Origin: an uncultured Bacteroidales bacterium
Lineage (GTDB): Bacteria; Bacteroidota; Bacteroidia; Bacteroidales; VadinHA17
Direction of reading: 5' to 3'
NCBI GenBank assembly: GCA_963844935.1
Contig: CAWJQH010000003.1
Coordinates: 172,430-236,429, forward strand
Length of the DNA: 64,000 nt
Position numbers and translations under genes: made by a program. Below, piece after piece: positions 10,828 to 61,240 of the stretch; position 1 is the first letter of the stretch, and the number at the start of each line of letters is the position of its first letter. The notes below the pieces were generated by a model. That model searched no databases and was not told the DNA's origin. It saw only the letters and a list, made by a program, of their open reading frames with translations.

Positions 10828-11442
10828 ATGATGAAAACCAAATTCGATATCCTTAATTCAACCTGCGTTCCGCTGCCTTACGAAAACGTGGATACTGATC
10901 AGATTATTCCCGCAAGATTCCTGAGCTCGACATCCAGGGAAGGCTTCGGGGAGAACCTGTTCCGCGACTGGAGATATGATAAATCAGGAAAGAAAAACCC
11001 GGAATTCAGCCTGAATGACCCTGCATACAGCGGAAAAATTCTTATTGCAGGTAAAAACTTCGGATGCGGCTCAAGCCGTGAACATGCCGTCTGGGCTGTG
11101 TACGACTACGGTTTCAGGGCAGTGATATCAAGCTTTTTCGCTGATATATTCAGGAACAACGCGCTCAACAACGGCCTCCTGCCGGTGGTGATACCCGAAA
11201 AACTGCTGGCAGAGCTTCTGGACCTTATAAAGAAAAGCCCCGGAACCATCGTGAGAATAGACCTCCGGGAACAGCTGGTAACAGTTCCCGCTATGGGAAA
11301 ATCTTCACGGTTTGAGATAAATCCGTATAAGAAGGAATGTCTCCTGAAAGGTCTTGATGATATCGAATACCTTCTGGGTATGCAGGATCTTATAAGAGAC
11401 TATGAAATCAAAACGCATGCAGATGAGAATCGAAATAACTGA
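10828..11442 (+). CDS. leuD: 3-isopropylmalate dehydratase small subunit
   Basis: DTDQIIPARFL and GKNFGCGSSREHA; immediately follows leuC. Confidence 0.92.
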   Translation: MMKTKFDILNSTCVPLPYENVDTDQIIPARFLSSTSREGFGENLFRDWRYDKSGKKNPEFSLNDPAYSGKILIAGKNFGCGSSREHAVWAVYDYGFRAVISSFFADIFRNNALNNGLLPVVIPEKLLAELLDLIKKSPGTIVRIDLREQLVTVPAMGKSSRFEINPYKKECLLKGLDDIEYLLGMQDLIRDYEIKTHADENRNN

Positions 11443-12985
11443 TACAACGCTGAGGGATGGAGAACAGACCCAGGGCGTTTCATATCCTCCCCTCGAAAAA
11501 CTCCATATTGCAACACTTCTGCTTAAAGATGTGAATGTGGATCATCTTGAGGTAGCTTCCGCAAGGGTCTCCTCCGGGGAGTTTGAAGCTATAAGCAGGA
11601 TCACCGAATGGGCCCGCCAGAATGATCTCCTGAGTAAAATCGAGGTCCTTGGTTTTGTTGACGGAGAGGTGTCAGTCAGATGGATCAGCGATGCCGGCTG
11701 CAAGGTTGTCAACCTGCTCTGCAAGGGATCATTGCGTCACCTCGAAAAACAACTCCGCAAAACTCCTGCCCAGCATGTGAGCGACATCAGGGAGATTATT
11801 GCAAAGGCAGGTGAGCTTGAAATGCAGGTCAATATCTACCTGGAAGACTGGTCCAACGGAATGATCCATTCGGAAGATTATGTTTATTTCATGATGGATT
11901 CACTTAAAGATGAGAGGATAAAAAGGTTCATGCTCCCCGATACGCTCGGAATACTTAACCCGGAACAGACCTTCAGTTTCTGCAAAAAGATGATTGATAA
12001 ATATCCTTCACTGCATTTTGATTTTCATGCGCACAACGATTATGACCTTGCCGTTGCAAATGTTTTCGCTGCAGTGCAGGCAGGCATCCACGGAATACAT
12101 ACAACGGTGAATGGCCTCGGTGAAAGGGCCGGCAATGCGCCGCTCTCAAGCGTCATAGGGATACTGCGTGATCATCTCGGAGCAGAGACAGGCGTTAACG
12201 AGTTTGAGATCACCAGGGTCAGCAAGATTGTTGAAACATTCAGCGGGATACGCATACCTGTTAACAAACCCATTATCGGTGAGAATGTGTTTACCCAGAC
12301 ATCAGGCATTCATGCTGACGGCGACAGCAAGGACAACCTTTATTTCAACAACCTGCTTCCTGAACGATTCGGAAGAAAACGGAAATATGCCCTGGGGAAA
12401 CAGTCAGGCAAGGCAACAATCAGGAAGAACCTTGAAGAATTCGGCCTGTTCCTCAATCCCGAATCCCTGAACAAGGTGACTCAAAGAGTGATTGAACTCG
12501 GCGATAAAAAGGAGAATGTAACAACTGATGACCTTCCGTTTATAATAGCGGATGTCCTTGGCAGTGACCCGATCGACTACAGGATCTTCATTAAGAATTA
12601 TTCCCTTTCCCTGTCTTATGGCCTGAAGCCGTTTGCCAGCGTCCAGATAGAGATAAACGGCAATCTTTACCAGGAAACATCCTCCGGTGACGGACAATAC
12701 GATGCTTTTATGAGGGCCATCAGAATTATATATGACAAACTGGGAAAGGAAATTCCTTTGCTCACTGATTACCAGGTGTCCATTCCGCCGGGAGGGAGGA
12801 CTGATGCGCTGGTTGAAACAGTTATAACATGGAATCACCGGGGAAATGAGTTCAGGACAAAAGGCCTCGATGCCGACCAGACTGAGTCGGCGATAAAGGC
12901 AACTGAAAAAATGCTGAATATTATTGAGAAGAATGAAAATGCTTTAAATGGAAAAATACTAATAAACACACCGCATGAAGTTTAA
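11417..12985 (+). CDS. second LeuA-family synthase, probably (R)-citramalate synthase (cimA-like)
   Basis: [26 protein letters not shown] and a C-terminal LeuA-dimer domain. It is distinct from leuA upstream. The start is ambiguous (track 11402; ATG 11417 or 11423) and overlaps the end of leuD. Confidence 0.7.
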
Positions 12986-14155: not shown

Positions 14156-14221
14156 ATGAATAGCTTACACAAGAATTTTAACCTCTATTACTATTTCTGG
14201 TTTTATTTTGAAAGCCGGTAA
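14156..14221 (+). CDS. aromatic amino acid operon leader peptide (MNSLHKNFNLYYYFWFYFESR)
   Basis: 21-codon ATG ORF containing 4 Phe, 4 Tyr and 1 Trp. Eight consecutive aromatic codons (YYYFWFYF) sit at positions 11-18, and a terminator hairpin follows 41 nt later. Confidence 0.75.
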   Translation: MNSLHKNFNLYYYFWFYFESR

Positions 14222-18358: not shown

Positions 18359-18415
18359 ATGTCATTAAACACGTTACATCATCATCATCTTCATACTTGC
18401 ACTCAGGCGAGGTAA
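18359..18415 (+). CDS. his operon leader peptide (MSLNTLHHHHLHTCTQAR)
   Basis: 18-codon ATG ORF in which 5 of 6 consecutive codons are CAT (His). An antiterminator-capable segment overlaps its 3' end and a terminator follows. Confidence 0.8.
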   Translation: MSLNTLHHHHLHTCTQAR

Positions 18416-25393: not shown

Positions 25394-25463
25394 CAGTTTT
25401 GGGCCTCGTGTCGGTAAAAGGTTAAAAAAATAAATACCGGACTTTATATTTATGAATAATTGT

Positions 25464-25471
25464 TATATTTG
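25464..25471 (+). promoter_or_regulatory. -7 promoter motif TATATTTG
   Basis: Exact TAnnTTTG match only 6 nt upstream of the trp leader ATG, which implies a very short or absent 5' UTR. Confidence 0.4.
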
Positions 25472-25477
25472 CATCAG

Positions 25478-25522
25478 ATGAAGACAAAAATATTATATAC
25501 CTGGCGCTGGTGCAGCTCATAA
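25478..25522 (+). CDS. trp leader peptide (MKTKILYTWRWCSS)
   Basis: 14-codon ATG ORF with two TGG codons separated by one codon (W-R-W). Alternative pairings and a terminator follow, then the TrpB-like gene. Confidence 0.7.
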   Translation: MKTKILYTWRWCSS

Positions 25523-25575
25523 GATGAAGCTGTGATTCAAGCCATTATATAATATCATAAGATAATTATGCATAG

Positions 25576-25604
25576 AGGCACGCTGATCACAGCGTGCCTT
25601 TTTT
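25576..25604 (+). terminator. attenuator terminator of the trp leader
   Basis: Perfect 10-bp stem AGGCACGCTG (25576-25585) / CAGCGTGCCT (25590-25599) with an ATCA loop, followed by T6. Confidence 0.8.
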
Positions 25605-25629
25605 ATTTATTAACCTTAATTAAACAGCT

Positions 25630-26994
25630 ATGGAAAAGATTACCAAAATTCTGTTAAGCGAAAACGAAATGCCCCGGCAGTGGTACAATATTGTTGCTGA
25701 TATGCCAAACAAGCCGTTGCCGCCGCTGAACCCCGCCACCGGTAAGCCGGTGGGCCCGGAAGATCTGTCGGTCATTTTTCCGATGGAGCTTATAAAACAG
25801 GAAGTATCGGCTGAGAGATACATTGATATCCCTGATGAGGTACTCGATCTGTACAGGACCTTTCGCCCCTCACCTCTTTTCCGGGCACGGAACCTTGAAA
25901 AGGCCCTGGGAACAAAGAGCAGGATATACTACAAATATGAGGGCGGTAATTATTCAGGCTCTCATAAGGCAAATACTGCCATCCCGCAGGCATATTACAA
26001 TAAAATGGAAGGCGTAAGGCGGATAACAACAGAGACAGGAGCCGGTCAGTGGGGAAGCGCAATGAGCTTCGCATGCAACCACTTCGGACTTGAACTGCTT
26101 GTATTCATGGTAAAAGTCAGTTACAATCAGAAACCCGGGCGCAAGCTCTTAATGAATACTTACGGTGCCAGGGTCGTTCCGTCGCCAAGCACAATGACCG
26201 CTGCCGGAAGGAGGGTGCTTGAACTCGATCCTGAGTCACCGGGAAGTCTTGGCATCGCCATTTCCGAAGCAATGGAGATTGCTGCACAGGATCCGTACAC
26301 AAAATACTCGCTCGGCAGTGTGCTTAACCATGTTATTCTTCATCAGACCATTATAGGTCAGGAGGCATTGCTCCAGATGGAAAAAACCGGTGACTACCCC
26401 GATGTGGTGATCGGATGCTTCGGCGGGGGATCAAATTTCTCCGGAATTGCATTTCCATTCCTGCGCGAAAACCTGAATAACGGGAAAAAGACTAGGCTTG
26501 TAGCTGTCGAACCTTCCTCCTGTCCCAAGCTGACAAAAGGAAAATTCACGTACGATTTCGGTGATCAGTCAGGCATGACTCCTCTATTGCCCATGTACAC
26601 GCTGGGTCATAATTTCATTCCGGACAAGATCCATGCGGGGGGTCTTCGTTATCATGGTGCCGGCGTCCTCGTCAGCCAGCTGCGCAAGGACGGATTTGTC
26701 GAGGCAAAAGCCAAGCAGCAGCGTGAATGCTTCGAAGGAGGTATTCTCTTCGCCAGAACGGAAGGTATCCTTCCTGCACCTGAATCGTCATATGCCATTG
26801 CCGGCGCTCTTGATGAAGCAAGGAGAGCGGACATTGAAGGTGTGTCAAAGACAATTCTTTTCAATCTCAGCGGCCACGGTCATTTTGACATCTCTGCCTA
26901 TGAGAAGTATTTCGAAGGCAACCTGCCTGACCATGAAACCACGGCAGAGGAGATAGAAAAGTCCCTTTCGGAGCTGAAACTACCTGTTACCTGA
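25630..26994 (+). CDS. trpB2: TrpB2-type tryptophan synthase beta-like PLP enzyme
   Basis: 454 aa with the N-terminal extension typical of TrpB2 (MPRQWYNIVADMPNKPLPPLNP), the GSHKANTA PLP-lysine motif, and GCFGGGSNFSG. No trpA or other trp genes are adjacent. Confidence 0.85.
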   Translation: MEKITKILLSENEMPRQWYNIVADMPNKPLPPLNPATGKPVGPEDLSVIFPMELIKQEVSAERYIDIPDEVLDLYRTFRPSPLFRARNLEKALGTKSRIYYKYEGGNYSGSHKANTAIPQAYYNKMEGVRRITTETGAGQWGSAMSFACNHFGLELLVFMVKVSYNQKPGRKLLMNTYGARVVPSPSTMTAAGRRVLELDPESPGSLGIAISEAMEIAAQDPYTKYSLGSVLNHVILHQTIIGQEALLQMEKTGDYPDVVIGCFGGGSNFSGIAFPFLRENLNNGKKTRLVAVEPSSCPKLTKGKFTYDFGDQSGMTPLLPMYTLGHNFIPDKIHAGGLRYHGAGVLVSQLRKDGFVEAKAKQQRECFEGGILFARTEGILPAPESSYAIAGALDEARRADIEGVSKTILFNLSGHGHFDISAYEKYFEGNLPDHETTAEEIEKSLSELKLPVT

Positions 26995-27014: not shown

Positions 27015-27048
27015 AGAAGAGAGGCATCATCGCTAATGCCTCTCTTCT
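27015..27048. terminator. 13-bp perfect hairpin between convergent trpB2 and nrdJ (no clear U-tract)
   Basis: AGAAGAGAGGCAT (27015-27027) pairs with ATGCCTCTCTTCT (27036-27048) across an 8-nt loop. It sits between two convergent genes. Confidence 0.45.
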
Positions 27049-27070: not shown

Positions 27071-27120
27071 TCCCCCTTGATAAGGGGGAGTATCCCGGCC
27101 ATAGGTCGGGAGGAGGGGGT
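27071..27120. repeat. structured intergenic repeat, family 2, single-arm copy
   Basis: Two hairpins, CCCCCTT-GAT-AAGGGGG (27072-27088) and CCCGGCC-ATA-GGTCGGG (27094-27110), followed by the purine tail AGGAGGGGG. It is collinear with 49871-49920. Confidence 0.65.
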
Positions 27121-27131
27121 TATAAAATCTG

Positions 27132-29771
27132 TCAGCTGCACTTAGATGTGCCGCAGTCGCTGCAGATGAGGCAACCCTCCTGGTAAACCAGGTTGGTGGA
27201 ACCGCATGTGCCGCACTTGCCCTTGGCCTTTGTTCCGTTGGGGATGTAACGCTTCAGCGAGCGCTCAATTCCGTTCTTCCATGTGTTGATGGATTCGCTG
27301 TCGAGCTTCATCGATGACACCAGCTCGACCACATCCTTGGCCGGCATCCCGTAGCGCAGCACACCTGATATCAGCCTGGCGTAATTCCAGAACTCAGGCT
27401 TGAACATATGAGACAGTCCCCCGAGAGTGTTCTTGTAACCGTACTTATCGGTGTACTGGAAGTCGTACCGGGTATTACCCGCATCGTCCTTGTTCTTGAT
27501 GATCTTTCCCTTGACAATGCTCTTGGGTATTGGGAACATCTCGTCATCCTGGAGGCCCGTGAAGATCTCATAAGGTACACCGTCCTTCAGCCCCACAAAG
27601 GCAATCCACTTCTCTTCATTATTCTGGAAGCGGAGTACGTCGGCCTCAAGCACCTTGGGCCTGATCGGGGACCAGTCCTGTTTCTTGTCCTCCTTGTTCG
27701 ATACAAGCACTCCTGCCCTCGAGCCGTCGCGGTAAACCGTTGCTCCCTTGCATCCTTCCTTCCACGCAGTTAGATAGAGCTCGGAGACAAGCTCTTCCTT
27801 TGCATCTGCAGGAAGGTTGATTGTCACGCTGATCGAGTGATCCACCCATTTCTGAATGGCTCCCTGCATGCGCACCTTGGCCATCCAGTCAACATCATTG
27901 GAGGTGGCCTTGTAGTAAGGCGATTTCTCAACAATTGTATTGATCTCCTCTTCGGTCATGCTCCTTACCTGTTCGTAGTCATAACCGTTCTGCTTCATCC
28001 ACTCGATGAACTTATGATGGAATACCACAAATTCTTCCCAGTGGTCGCCCACCTCGTCGGTGAAGCTCACCGTCACATCCTTGTCATTCGGATTCACCTT
28101 GCGGCGCCGCTTGTAGAAAGGCAGGAACACCGGTTCAATACCCGATGTTGTCTGGCTCATCAGGCTTGTTGATCCTGTCGGAGCGATTGTCAGCAGGGCA
28201 ATGTTGCGTCTGCCGTGTTTTTCCATCTCGGCGTACATCTCAGGATCAGCCTCGCGGAGACGGTTGATGAAAGGATTGTTACGTTCTCTTTCCTTGTCGT
28301 ACATCGGGAAAGCACCCCGCTCCTTTGCCATCTCGGTGGATGACCTGTATGCTTCAATGGCAAGTGTACGGTGCACACCGACTGAAAACTCTGTTGCCTC
28401 GTCGGTTCCGTACCGCAAACCCAGGGCAGCAAGCATGTCTCCCTCGGCGGTGATGCCGATGCCGGTACGTCTTCCTTCCTCGGTCTTATGCCGTATATTT
28501 TCCCACAGGTTCCGTTCAACAAGTTTCAGTTCCGCAGGTTCAGGATCATTGTCGATCTTGGCTATGATGGAATCTATCTTCTCCTGCTCAAGGTCGATGA
28601 TGTCATCCATGATCCTTTGTGAGAGATGTACATGCTCCCTGAACAGCTTATAGTCAAATGAGGCTTTTGGGGTAAAGGGGTTCTTGACATACCCGAAGAG
28701 GTTGATTGCAATCAGCCGGCAGCTGTCGTACGGGCAGAGCGGGATTTCGCCGCACGGATTCGTTGATACTGTCTCATAGCCCAGGTCGGCATAGCAGTCA
28801 GGCACGCTCTCGCGCTTGATTGTATCCCAGAAGAGCATCCCAGGCTCAGCTGATTTCCACGCATTATGGACTATCTTGTTCCAGAGCTTGCGTGCATCAA
28901 TCTCCTTAACGAATTTCGGATTTTCTGATTTGATCGGATACTGCTGGCGGAAGCTTCTGCCTTTGATCACCGACTCCATGAAGTCGTCTGTTATCTTCAC
29001 CGAGACGTTTGCGCCCGTGACTTTTCCTGCCTCAAGCTTAGCGTCGATAAAACTTTCGGCATCAGGATGCTTGATTGATATTGACAGCATGAGTGCGCCG
29101 CGGCGGCCGTCCTGGGCCACCTCGCGGGTTGAGTTTGAATAGCGCTCCATGAAAGGCACCACGCCCGTTGAGGTGAGCGCGCTGTTGAGCACCGGCGAGC
29201 CCTTGGGGCGTATGTGCGAGAGATCATGACCGACTCCGCCTCGGCGTTTCATGAGCTGCACCTGCTCCTGGTCGATCTTCATTATCCCGCCGTAGGAATC
29301 GGAATCGCCTTTGTTGCCTATGACAAAGCAGTTCGACAGCGAAGCGATCTGGTAGTCATTGCCTATTCCGGTCATCGGTCCGCCCTGCGGAATAATATAT
29401 TTGAAATCCTTAAAAGCCTTATAGATGGTTTCTGCCGGAAGCGGATTCGGGTACTTCAGTTCAATGCGGTGTATCTCTGAAGCAAGGCGACGGTGCATGT
29501 CGTCCGGAGTTTTTTCGTAGAGATTTCCAAATGAATCCTTCAGGGCATACTTGCTTGCCCATACCTTGGCTGCCAGGTCGTCACCGCCAAAGTACTCGCG
29601 TGTTGCCTTTATAGCATCCTCATAGAGGTAAGTGGTTTGTTCACTTGTCCCTTCCGGCATGGTCTCCTTCTCCGCCAATGTCTCTTCCTTTTTCAACTTC
29701 TTCTCCTCTTTTTTAATCATCTCCTTCTCGTTAGGGGCGACGGATGGCATGTGGACAAATGAATCTCCCAT
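27132..29771 (-). CDS. nrdJ: class II (adenosylcobalamin-dependent) ribonucleotide reductase
   Basis: 879-aa RNR core with TNPCGEIPL (active-site Cys-Glu) and YDSCRLIAINL. It lacks a class I partner beta subunit nearby. The C-terminal Cys-rich zinc ribbon CGTCGSTNLVYQEGCLICSDCGTSKC is typical of many class II enzymes. Confidence 0.85.
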   Translation of the reverse strand: MGDSFVHMPSVAPNEKEMIKKEEKKLKKEETLAEKETMPEGTSEQTTYLYEDAIKATREYFGGDDLAAKVWASKYALKDSFGNLYEKTPDDMHRRLASEIHRIELKYPNPLPAETIYKAFKDFKYIIPQGGPMTGIGNDYQIASLSNCFVIGNKGDSDSYGGIMKIDQEQVQLMKRRGGVGHDLSHIRPKGSPVLNSALTSTGVVPFMERYSNSTREVAQDGRRGALMLSISIKHPDAESFIDAKLEAGKVTGANVSVKITDDFMESVIKGRSFRQQYPIKSENPKFVKEIDARKLWNKIVHNAWKSAEPGMLFWDTIKRESVPDCYADLGYETVSTNPCGEIPLCPYDSCRLIAINLFGYVKNPFTPKASFDYKLFREHVHLSQRIMDDIIDLEQEKIDSIIAKIDNDPEPAELKLVERNLWENIRHKTEEGRRTGIGITAEGDMLAALGLRYGTDEATEFSVGVHRTLAIEAYRSSTEMAKERGAFPMYDKERERNNPFINRLREADPEMYAEMEKHGRRNIALLTIAPTGSTSLMSQTTSGIEPVFLPFYKRRRKVNPNDKDVTVSFTDEVGDHWEEFVVFHHKFIEWMKQNGYDYEQVRSMTEEEINTIVEKSPYYKATSNDVDWMAKVRMQGAIQKWVDHSISVTINLPADAKEELVSELYLTAWKEGCKGATVYRDGSRAGVLVSNKEDKKQDWSPIRPKVLEADVLRFQNNEEKWIAFVGLKDGVPYEIFTGLQDDEMFPIPKSIVKGKIIKNKDDAGNTRYDFQYTDKYGYKNTLGGLSHMFKPEFWNYARLISGVLRYGMPAKDVVELVSSMKLDSESINTWKNGIERSLKRYIPNGTKAKGKCGTCGSTNLVYQEGCLICSDCGTSKCS

Positions 29772-59205: not shown

Positions 59206-61240
59206 ATGAAGAAGTTTAAACGCCACCTTATCACCTCTGCCCTGCCTTATGCAAACGGTCCTATTCATATAGGACATCTTGCCGGGGTCTACGTACCGTC
59301 GGATATCTATGTACGCTACCTCCGGATGAAGGGTGCCGATGTGATATCAATATGCGGTTCCGATGAGCATGGCGTGCCCATCACTCTCAAGGCGAGGAAA
59401 GAGGGCATCACCCCGCAGGAGGTTGTTGACCGCTATCATGAGATGAACAAAAAAGCCTTTGAGGAGTTCGGCATTTCTTTCGACATCTATTCGCGCACCT
59501 CGAACAAAATACACTACGAGACCGCCTCGGCATTCTTCCGCAAACTATATGACCAGGGCGAATTCATAGAGAAGAGTGCCAGCCAGTATTATGATGAGGA
59601 GGCGGGGTGTTTCCTTGCTGACAGGTACATCACAGGCACCTGTCCGTTCTGCGGAAATGAAAATGCCTACGGTGACCAGTGCGAGAAATGCGGCACGTCA
59701 CTCAGCCCCACAGACCTGATCAATCCGCGGTCGACAATCAGCGGCAGCGCACCGGTGATGCGTGAAACACTGCACTGGTACCTTCCTCTTGACAGGTATG
59801 AATCGTGGATCAGAAAATGGATACTGGAAGATCATGCCGACTGGAAGACAAACGTGTACGGCCAGTGCAAGTCGTGGCTCGACCAGGGCCTGCAGCCCAG
59901 GGCTGTGAGCCGTGACCTCGACTGGGGAGTTCCTGTACCCGTTGAGGGCGCTGAGGGCAAGGTTCTTTATGTGTGGTTTGATGCTCCCATCGGATATATT
60001 TCGGCAACACGTGAACTGACTCCCGACTGGGAAAAATACTGGAAAGACCCGGAGACACGCATGATACACTTCATCGGCAAGGATAATATCGTGTTTCATT
60101 GCATCATCTTCCCTGCGATGCTGAAGGCAGAAGGGAGCTATATCCTTCCTGACAACGTACCGGCAAACGAGTTCCTTAACCTGGAGAACGAAAAAATATC
60201 AACCTCAAGGAACTGGGCTGTCTGGCTGCATGAATACCTGGCTGACTTCCCGGGGAAGCAGGATTCGCTCCGCTATGCCCTGTGCGCCAGCGCACCCGAG
60301 ACAAAAGACAACGACTTTACATGGAAAGAGTTCCAGGCCAGGAACAACAATGAGCTGGTGGCTATTCTCGGGTAACTTCGTCAACCGGACACTGGTGCTG
60401 ACAAACAACTATTACGGAGGCACAGTTCCCGTTCCCGGTGAAATGAACGAATATGATAAGTCAACTGTAAATTCAATCATGACATGCCGGGAAGGCACTG
60501 AGAGCAACCTCGAGGCTTTCCGCTTCCGGCAGGCGCTTGCCGAAGCAATGAACCTGGCACGTCTTGGCAACAAGTACCTGGCAGACACCGAGCCCTGGAA
60601 AGTGATTAAAACCGATCCTGAGCGGGTTAAGACAATCATGTTCATTTCGCTTCAGATATCTGCCAACCTCGCGATAATACTTGAGCCTTTCCTCCCCTTC
60701 TCGATGAATAAGCTGAGAAGCTGGCTGAATATCGCCGATCTCAGCTGGGACAAGGCCGGCAGCGCTGAACTTCTGAAGCCGGGTCACAAGGTCTCCGCCG
60801 GAGAACTGATGTTCAGCAAAGTTGAGGATGCCGAGATAGAAAAGCAGGTAAAGAAGCTGCTTGATACAAAACAGGCGAATGAGAAAGTTACGGCACCGGT
60901 AATTGCCGCGAAAAATGATGTCAGCTTCGAGGAGTTCACCGCGATGGATATACGCACAGCGACCATCCTGGAAGCACAAAAAGTGCCAAAGACCACCAAA
61001 CTCATAAAGCTGAAGGTTGATACCGGAATAGATGTACGGACCATCGTGTCAGGCATCGCTGAGCAGTTCACTGCAGAAGAGCTCCCGGGAAAGCAGATCT
61101 CCGTGATTGTGAATCTCGCACCGCGAAACATCAAGGGAATAGAATCAAGGGGAATGGTTCTGCTGGCAGAAGATGAGAACGGCAAGCTGACCTTTATGGT
61201 GCCCGAAACGGCAATAAAAAACGGAAGCCCCGTTAAATAG
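59206..61240 (+). pseudogene. metG: methionyl-tRNA synthetase, reading frame broken by one extra G at 60370-60372
   Basis: HIGH (PIHIGHLAG), zinc knuckles ([18 protein letters not shown]) and KMSKS-like KISTSR lie in ORF 59206-60375. The anticodon-binding and C-terminal EMAP/Trbp111-like domains lie in ORF 60230-61240. Removing one G from CTC GGG TAA C restores ...[16 protein letters not shown]... Confidence 0.9.

Follow-up and report, generated by a model that had tools for sequence, protein, structure and literature searches.

A conserved leader-peptide element with two Trp codons precedes a stand-alone trpB2 gene in uncultured Bacteroidales and probably controls it by attenuation

An uncultured Bacteroidales bacterium (VadinHA17 lineage) carries, on contig CAWJQH010000003.1 of assembly GCA_963844935.1, a gene for a TrpB2-type protein that is preceded by a short leader with two Trp codons. 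We analyzed a stretch of 64,000 nucleotides (nt) of this contig (positions 172,430 to 236,429; hereafter the window, whose own numbering is used throughout) together with related loci from other genomes. The results indicate that a ribosome-mediated transcription attenuator, in which a leader peptide senses charged tRNA-Trp, probably controls the single gene trpB2, whose product would make Trp from indole without TrpA. The role of TrpB2 has been debated since 2002; the enzyme has been variously proposed to salvage indole, to deaminate serine, or to be an ancestral synthase. A dedicated Trp leader conserved with trpB2 across more than 70 species-level genomes provides independent regulatory evidence on this question: a leader that calls for TrpB2 precisely when charged tRNA-Trp is low would imply that the enzyme serves Trp supply.

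The gene behind the leader is the following.

25630..26994, + strand: trpB2, encoding a TrpB-like pyridoxal phosphate (PLP)-dependent enzyme of the TrpB2 type with 454 amino acids (aa), assigned by family models and solved-structure matches

The original prediction, which was made from the letters of the window, had described this product as a 454-aa TrpB2-type protein with an N-terminal extension and a GSHKANTA motif, and the family models bore this out. Among the NCBIfam models, the protein scored 710 bits against the TrpB2 model NF009057 (cut-off, 366) and 626 bits against TIGR01415 trpB_rel (cut-off, 519) but failed the TrpB1 model TIGR00263 (138 bits; cut-off, 392). The extension (MPRQWYNIVADMPNKPLPPLNP) occupies residues 14–35, and GSHKANTA occupies residues 110–117, with K113 as the catalytic Lys. 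Solved structures were matched over the full length by the Sulfolobus TrpB2 chains 6hul_B (442 bits), 4qys_B (391 bits), and 6hte_B (390 bits), with alignments beginning at residues 6–11, whereas TrpB1 chains gave at most 133 bits and aligned only from residue 77. GCFGGGSNFSG, which includes the PLP-phosphate loop GGGSN, and TETGAGQWG aligned with the solved TrpB2 chains. The motifs shared with TrpB2i and TrpB2a of Sulfolobus solfataricus (PDB 6HUL, 4QYS, and 6HTE) are GSHK(I/A)NTA, TETGAGQWG, GGGSNF, and AGGLRYHG; unlike the window protein, these enzymes are archaeal, and TrpB2i is operon-encoded and binds TrpA. Judged by its sequence, the window protein is a TrpB2-type PLP enzyme.

One scan of species-representative genomes yielded 80 related loci, all from metagenome-assembled genomes of uncultured Bacteroidales and with TrpB2 proteins 81–97% identical. 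Enough upstream sequence for a leader check was available at 79 of them, and TGG-NNN-TGG was found within an open reading frame (ORF) about 150 nt before trpB2 at 73 of the 79, two of these ORFs starting with GTG. Alignment of 74 distinct leaders (alignment A1) and folding of the window sequence delineated the following features.

25464..25471, + strand: candidate Bacteroidetes-type −7 promoter box TATATTTG, 6 nt before the leader ATG; conserved in A1, with a putative function
25478..25522, + strand: leader ORF of 14 codons plus a stop codon, MKTKILYTWRWCSS; an in-frame ORF in all 74 aligned leaders
25490..25555, + strand: long 1:2 hairpin, a candidate anti-antiterminator that includes the Trp codons; minimum free energy (MFE) fold and covariation
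25502..25510, + strand: Trp-Arg-Trp regulatory codons TGG-CGC-TGG; both TGG invariant in A1
25529..25536, + strand: segment 2, GCTGTGAT, the 5′ strand of the antiterminator; CTGTG invariant in A1
25541..25543, + strand: GCC clamp, whose partner in the antiterminated fold is GGC (25577–25579) at the foot of the terminator 5′ arm; constrained folds and conservation
25574..25601 (25574–25604 with the T run), + strand: intrinsic terminator hairpin, core GGCACGCTG-ATCA-CAGCGTGCC, −20.1 kcal/mol
25586..25593, + strand: segment 3, ATCACAGC, the terminator loop and upper 3′ arm, serving as the 3′ strand of the antiterminator; loop bases conserved and covarying with segment 2
25599..25611, + strand: T-rich tract TTTTTTATTTATT after the terminator stem

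The MFE fold of positions 25470–25615 (−45.4 kcal/mol, z = −5.2) consists of the hairpin with the Trp codons and the terminator. In the 1:2 hairpin, segment 1 (GUGCAGCU, 25510–25517) pairs with segment 2 (AGCUGUG), and the terminator has a 12-bp GC-rich stem followed by a T run. When the footprint of a ribosome at the Trp codons was masked, segment 2 (GCUGUGAU) was able to pair with AUCACAGC (25586–25593).

All 74 aligned leader peptides contain exactly two Trp, at codons 9 and 11, and the codon between them varies (S, R, C, L, T, or P). The peptides are 13–24 aa long and variable at most positions. From the start codon to the second TGG, the 74 sequences together contain one stop codon in the leader frame vs 20 and 102 in the other two frames, which indicates that the reading frame has been kept open. 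The terminator helix is paired in 97.7% of cells, with compensatory changes in five of its nine pairs; in the 1:2 hairpin, the corresponding values for the two helices are 84 and 83%, and compensatory changes occur at 11 pairs. The antiterminator is paired in 96.9% of cells (96% for segment 2 with 25586–25593), vs 26–46% for slid controls, and has three compensatory pairs, including two terminator-loop positions; the GCC:GGC clamp is 98.6% paired across the 74 sequences. That bases of a terminator loop are conserved and covary is hard to explain unless they pair elsewhere. The leader stop codon lies −10 to +20 nt from the core of segment 2 in every leader except one alignment outlier, so close that a terminating ribosome would mask segment 2. 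The Trp leader attenuator named in the original prediction is thus upheld by the two invariant Trp codons, the covarying helices, and its recurrence at 73 of the 79 loci, and, as far as sequence can tell, the upstream element is a genuine leader-peptide attenuator conserved with trpB2. When the window and 1.4 Mb of sequence from the related loci were searched with an nhmmer profile of the leader, no further copy emerged; the additional matches were all reverse-strand hits of the palindromic terminator to itself.

Most leader peptides belong to one of two length classes, 14–16 or 23–24 aa. Peptides of the long class have their stop codon within the conserved TTATATAA, the 3′ strand of an outer helix whose 5′ strand is formed by conserved Leu-Tyr-Ile codons (TTATATATC), and RNA pairing hence dictates part of the peptide sequence.

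The consensus of the −7 promoter element of Bacteroidetes, which Bayley and colleagues are said to have defined in 2000, is TAnnTTTG. In the aligned leaders, the TA and TT positions of the box are at least 90% conserved, and the box lies 5–6 nt before the leader start (A1, columns about 21–36). A promoter box so near the start codon suggests that the leader ORF is translated from a leaderless or nearly leaderless transcript, and the ORF is probably (near-)leaderless.

On these features, the attenuator would operate as follows. Transcription would start just 5′ of the 14-codon leader ORF, a start site that we infer from the box. When Trp-tRNA is plentiful, the ribosome would reach the leader stop codon and cover segment 2 (GCUGUGA), or the 1:2 hairpin would form; in either case, the terminator (25574–25604) would fold and transcription would end before trpB2. 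When Trp-tRNA is scarce, the ribosome would stall on the two UGG codons (25502–25510) and mask segment 1, and the freed segment 2 would pair with the terminator loop and the upper 3′ arm, assisted by the GCC:GGC clamp on the 5′ arm. This antiterminator pairing would block the terminator, and trpB2 would be transcribed. The TrpB2 product would then, independently of TrpA, convert free indole and L-serine or O-phospho-L-serine into Trp, and a shortage of Trp would thus turn indole capture on.

Several observations weigh against this scheme. In the leader of the window, with the ribosome footprint masked, the terminator state (−26.6 kcal/mol) is thermodynamically favored over the antiterminator state (−20.5 kcal/mol), and antitermination would therefore have to be kinetic. 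It is also unusual that segment 2 finds its antiterminator partner in the terminator loop and 3′ arm and not in the 5′ arm. The leader ORF is missing in six relatives. In addition, the score against Rfam RF00513 (Trp_leader) is under the gathering threshold: the model aligns end to end at 25501–25605 on the correct strand, with 21.1 bits vs a gathering value of 41 (E = 0.018–0.042), and the whole window gave no gathering-level Rfam match. The trpB2 leader has the Trp_leader architecture, and the full-length alignment at the correct place counts in favor of the scheme, but the leader is not a member of that family. As to the energetics, folds of the window leader show segment 2 occupying the 5′ arm at a stage when the 3′ arm has yet to be transcribed, and the antiterminator is the MFE structure of the stalled-ribosome fold in some relatives. 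Pairing of segment 2 with the terminator 5′ arm was considered as another register for the antiterminator and rejected; this register is 81% paired but without covariation and is broken when column 146 of A1 changes. It is possible that this register is an early co-transcriptional intermediate.

The enterobacterial trpL attenuator (RF00513) shares with the trpB2 leader a short ORF with two Trp codons near its stop codon, a 1:2 hairpin that includes these codons, a GC-rich intrinsic terminator ending in a U run, and an antiterminator as the alternative fold. In contrast to trpL, the Trp codons are not tandem but arranged as W-x-W, the terminator loop and 3′ arm supply the antiterminator partner, a Bacteroidetes-type −7 box lies before an ORF that is probably (near-)leaderless, and the element precedes one stand-alone trpB2 rather than trpEDCBA. 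In Actinobacteria, Trp leaders predicted by comparative genomics likewise combine a Trp-codon peptide, a terminator, and an antiterminator (Seliverstov et al. 2005, PMC1262725), and some lie before non-canonical targets, e.g., trpS2 or a second trpB-A pair. They differ from the present leader in phylum, in their unrelated sequences, and in their targets, which are trp operons or trpS and not a monocistronic TrpB2-type gene. Both leader attenuators and TrpB2 were thus known before, and the modestly unusual features here are the antiterminator on the terminator loop and 3′ arm and the probably leaderless ORF. We found no description of Trp-leader control of a TrpB2 gene in the literature searched, in which subscription literature was thinly covered, and a prior description is possible. 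The element is a further, clear case of classical attenuation in Bacteroidota that is backed by covariation. It also provides a compact RNA part that would respond to Trp and points to a simple way of testing for indole cross-feeding in anaerobic communities.

The prediction that trpB2 is the only gene behind the element was confirmed by the sequence on its 3′ side, and the gene is monocistronic.

27016..27047, + strand: 12-bp hairpin 3′ of trpB2, the probable transcript end, with a weak U tract (−25.7 kcal/mol, z = −4.0)
27132..29771, − strand: nrdJ, an adenosylcobalamin-dependent ribonucleotide reductase gene (TIGR02504, 572 bits), convergent and bounding the trpB2 unit

The convergent nrdJ has a terminator-like hairpin of its own at 27089–27071.

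The gene order in relatives shows that the leader belongs to trpB2 and not to a particular operon. The commonest order is pheA-aat-tyrA-DAHPS/CM-aroA-[leader]-trpB2 (CM, chorismate mutase), followed by unrelated convergent genes; the 416-aa gene before the leader was confirmed as aroA. The order of the window, his operon-[leader]-trpB2 with a convergent nrdJ, occurs in one subclade, and pheA-[leader]-trpB2 or DAHPS/CM-[leader]-trpB2 is found elsewhere. The module thus stands before trpB2 behind four different upstream genes (hisIE, pheA, DAHPS-CM, and aroA), trpB2 invariably comes last, and its neighbors are usually genes of the aromatic pathway. Since the module is the same whatever the upstream gene, the leader and trpB2 move as a unit, and the his-operon context of the window is a lineage-specific rearrangement. 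It had been proposed that Trp-responsive control of an isolated TrpB2 at the end of a large amino-acid supercluster argues for a real contribution to Trp supply. The placement holds in the window, where trpB2 follows the his operon, but does not generalize, since trpB2 follows aroA in most relatives. The retention of the module with trpB2 in 73 genomes and in several contexts points to Trp-responsive expression, a response that we infer from the leader, and from this to a real role in Trp supply.

The six relatives without a leader ORF are of two kinds. In three of them, trpB2 lies directly behind DAHPS/CM with neither leader nor hairpin (L002, 9740–10000; L074, 4020–4284; and L078, 3130–3388), and trpB2 is presumably co-transcribed with the aromatic operon under the leader of that operon. 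The other three keep the terminator hairpin between aroA and trpB2 but have lost the leader ORF and antiterminator (L028, 9050–9250; L031, 2320–2516; and L032, 9800–10000), which would leave an unconditional terminator before an intact trpB2.

NCBIfam scans of the 51 longest ORFs, picked as gene candidates from the list of ORFs of at least 120 aa, found no trpA, trpE, trpG, trpD, trpC, or trpF and no TrpB1 gene in the window. Probing with E. coli TrpA (validated as TIGR00262) and TrpB was negative for TrpA and for a further TrpB, both in the window and at the 80 related loci, whose flanks extended up to 10 kb per side and less at contig ends. The earlier statement that no trpA is nearby is therefore extended to the relatives.

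It is unlikely that TrpB2 is the only or main tryptophan synthase β subunit in these bacteria and works not in salvage but with a TrpA encoded elsewhere in a dispersed trp regulon, the attenuator then representing Trp control of the last step. This arrangement would fit the best solved-structure match, S. solfataricus TrpB2i, which complexes with TrpA (442 bits for 6hul_B vs 390 bits for other TrpB2 chains), as well as the fact that most relatives have trpB2 within the aromatic biosynthesis operon, with which it is presumably co-transcribed in three genomes. Such an arrangement has to be set against the lack of trpA throughout the window and the up-to-10-kb flanks of the 80 relatives. B. thetaiotaomicron, moreover, has a canonical trp operon, and Hettwer and Sterner reportedly found in 2002 that TrpB2 of T. 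maritima does not bind TrpA. TrpB2 serves as the sole TrpB in some archaea, but 14 of the 16 TrpB2 genes that a survey placed outside operons belonged to species with an additional, operon-based trpB1 (PMC1854888).

A somewhat less probable alternative is that the Bacteroidales studied here lost or never had trpEGDCFA and that the attenuator-controlled TrpB2 is their only route to Trp; such bacteria would be obligate cross-feeders on community indole (or would take up Trp), and the leader would turn on indole capture. If this were true, widespread Bacteroidales of soil, sediment, and digesters would sense the charging of Trp-tRNA and switch on a high-affinity, indole-capturing synthase. In line with this idea, the ilv/leu, phe/tyr, and his operons of the cluster each have a leader and the Trp branch is represented only by trpB2, in the window and likewise in the 80 relatives. 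TrpB2 is also better conserved than its biosynthetic neighbors, a comparison that is biased because the loci were chosen on TrpB2 identity and that we rejected as strong evidence. In Bacteroidales, however, the trp operon is usually unlinked from other amino-acid operons. Bacterial TrpB2 typically accompanies a canonical operon (PMC1854888), and our prior expectation is that a canonical trp pathway is also present in these genomes.

It is most improbable that the hairpin is a mere terminator of the upstream operon, the short ORF with its Trp codons fortuitous, and trpB2 transcribed from an unregulated promoter of its own. The stretch between the hisIE stop codon and the leader (25394–25463) has no convincing separate terminator (−5.6 kcal/mol, z = +1.1), and in three relatives the hairpin persists although the leader ORF is gone, as such a view would allow. 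Nevertheless, 74 distinct sequences have conserved the ORF, its two Trp codons, and, with covariation, three helices that exclude one another, whatever the upstream gene, and the conserved promoter-like box lies upstream of the leader ORF and not downstream of the hairpin. Without a hisIE terminator, read-through from the his operon would enter the Trp attenuator, which may thus also insulate trpB2 from his transcription. Finally, it is barely conceivable that the main reaction of TrpB2 is a different one (serine deamination or another β-substitution) with an incidental Trp control. A serine deaminase role was once proposed (mentioned in PMC1854888), but a function unconnected with Trp would hardly account for a Trp-specific leader, and characterized TrpB2 enzymes make Trp from indole (PMC11535334, PMC11917138, and PMC11085991).

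The attenuator-controlled, TrpA-independent TrpB2 that we favor agrees with what is known of its homologs. TrpB2 genes outside trp operons, including in 'Bacteroides', have long been known and usually occur alongside an operon-based trpB1 (PMC1854888). The window trpB2, being outside any trp operon and not adjacent to trpA, corresponds to the trpB2_o situation of Merkl 2007. With the TrpB2 genes of T. maritima, T. kodakarensis, and B. thetaiotaomicron (BT_RS23500), it shares the TIGR01415/NF009057/COG1350 family, the N-terminal extension, and the lack of linkage to trpA; it differs in having a dedicated Trp leader and in lying in or beside aromatic or histidine operons, whereas Trp-specific control of the homologous genes is described in none of the papers searched. 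PMC11917138 credits TrpB2 with a high affinity for indole and the use of O-phosphoserine (citing Hettwer & Sterner 2002 and Busch et al. 2014), and PMC11085991, citing Hiyama et al. 2014, has T. kodakarensis TrpB2 taking part in the synthesis of Trp as well as in the salvage of indole. The B. thetaiotaomicron homolog rescues an E. coli ΔtrpA mutant via indole cross-feeding (PMC11535334). The scavenging of indole, raised as one possibility in the original prediction, fits this rescue, an observation on a homolog; the activity of the window enzyme and its indole source are putative.

Leader-peptide control does not seem to be confined to trpB2 in this organism. Genes from 2435 to 26994 are all on the + strand, in the order ilvD-ilvB-ilvN-ilvC-leuA-leuC-leuD-cimA-like-leuB, then pheA-aminotransferase-tyrA-DAHPS/chorismate mutase, then hisG-D-C-B-H-A-F-IE, followed by the leader and trpB2. 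The other operons of the cluster have their own leader ORFs, in which codons for Ile/Leu, Phe/Tyr/Trp, or His abound.

2313-2366, + strand: candidate ilv/leu leader peptide, (V)KSVLYIIILIIIAAGS
14156-14221, + strand: candidate phe/tyr leader peptide, MNSLHKNFNLYYYFWFYFESR
18359-18415, + strand: candidate his leader peptide, MSLNTLHHHHLHTCTQAR

Leader-peptide attenuation thus appears to run the whole cluster, and the presence of Ile/Leu-, Phe/Tyr-, and His-rich ORFs before the other operons makes such control probably general in the organism.

Within the leu operon, a citramalate synthase-like gene (11402–12985, + strand) lies between leuD and leuB and scores 671 bits against the CimA model, below its cut-off of 950 bits. 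Its position suggests that a citramalate route to isoleucine may be built into this operon. Just upstream of the amino-acid cluster are two tandem glycine C-acetyltransferase (kbl) frames (61–441 and 545–1756, + strand). In the first, whose ORF starts near the start of the window, the match is confined to the C-terminal portion of the family model (positions 282–393). Beyond nrdJ, a large gene had no NCBIfam match; an outer-membrane receptor was the initial guess for its product. The remaining window contains type IX secretion system genes (porW and porX), by which the organism is placed in Bacteroidota, and housekeeping genes. Among the genes of the window, metG (methionine--tRNA ligase) is split into two overlapping ORFs in different frames (59206–60375 and 60230–61240, + strand), the N-terminal part matching model positions 3–387 and the C-terminal part positions 388–676, which reflects a frameshift, an assembly error, or a pseudogene.

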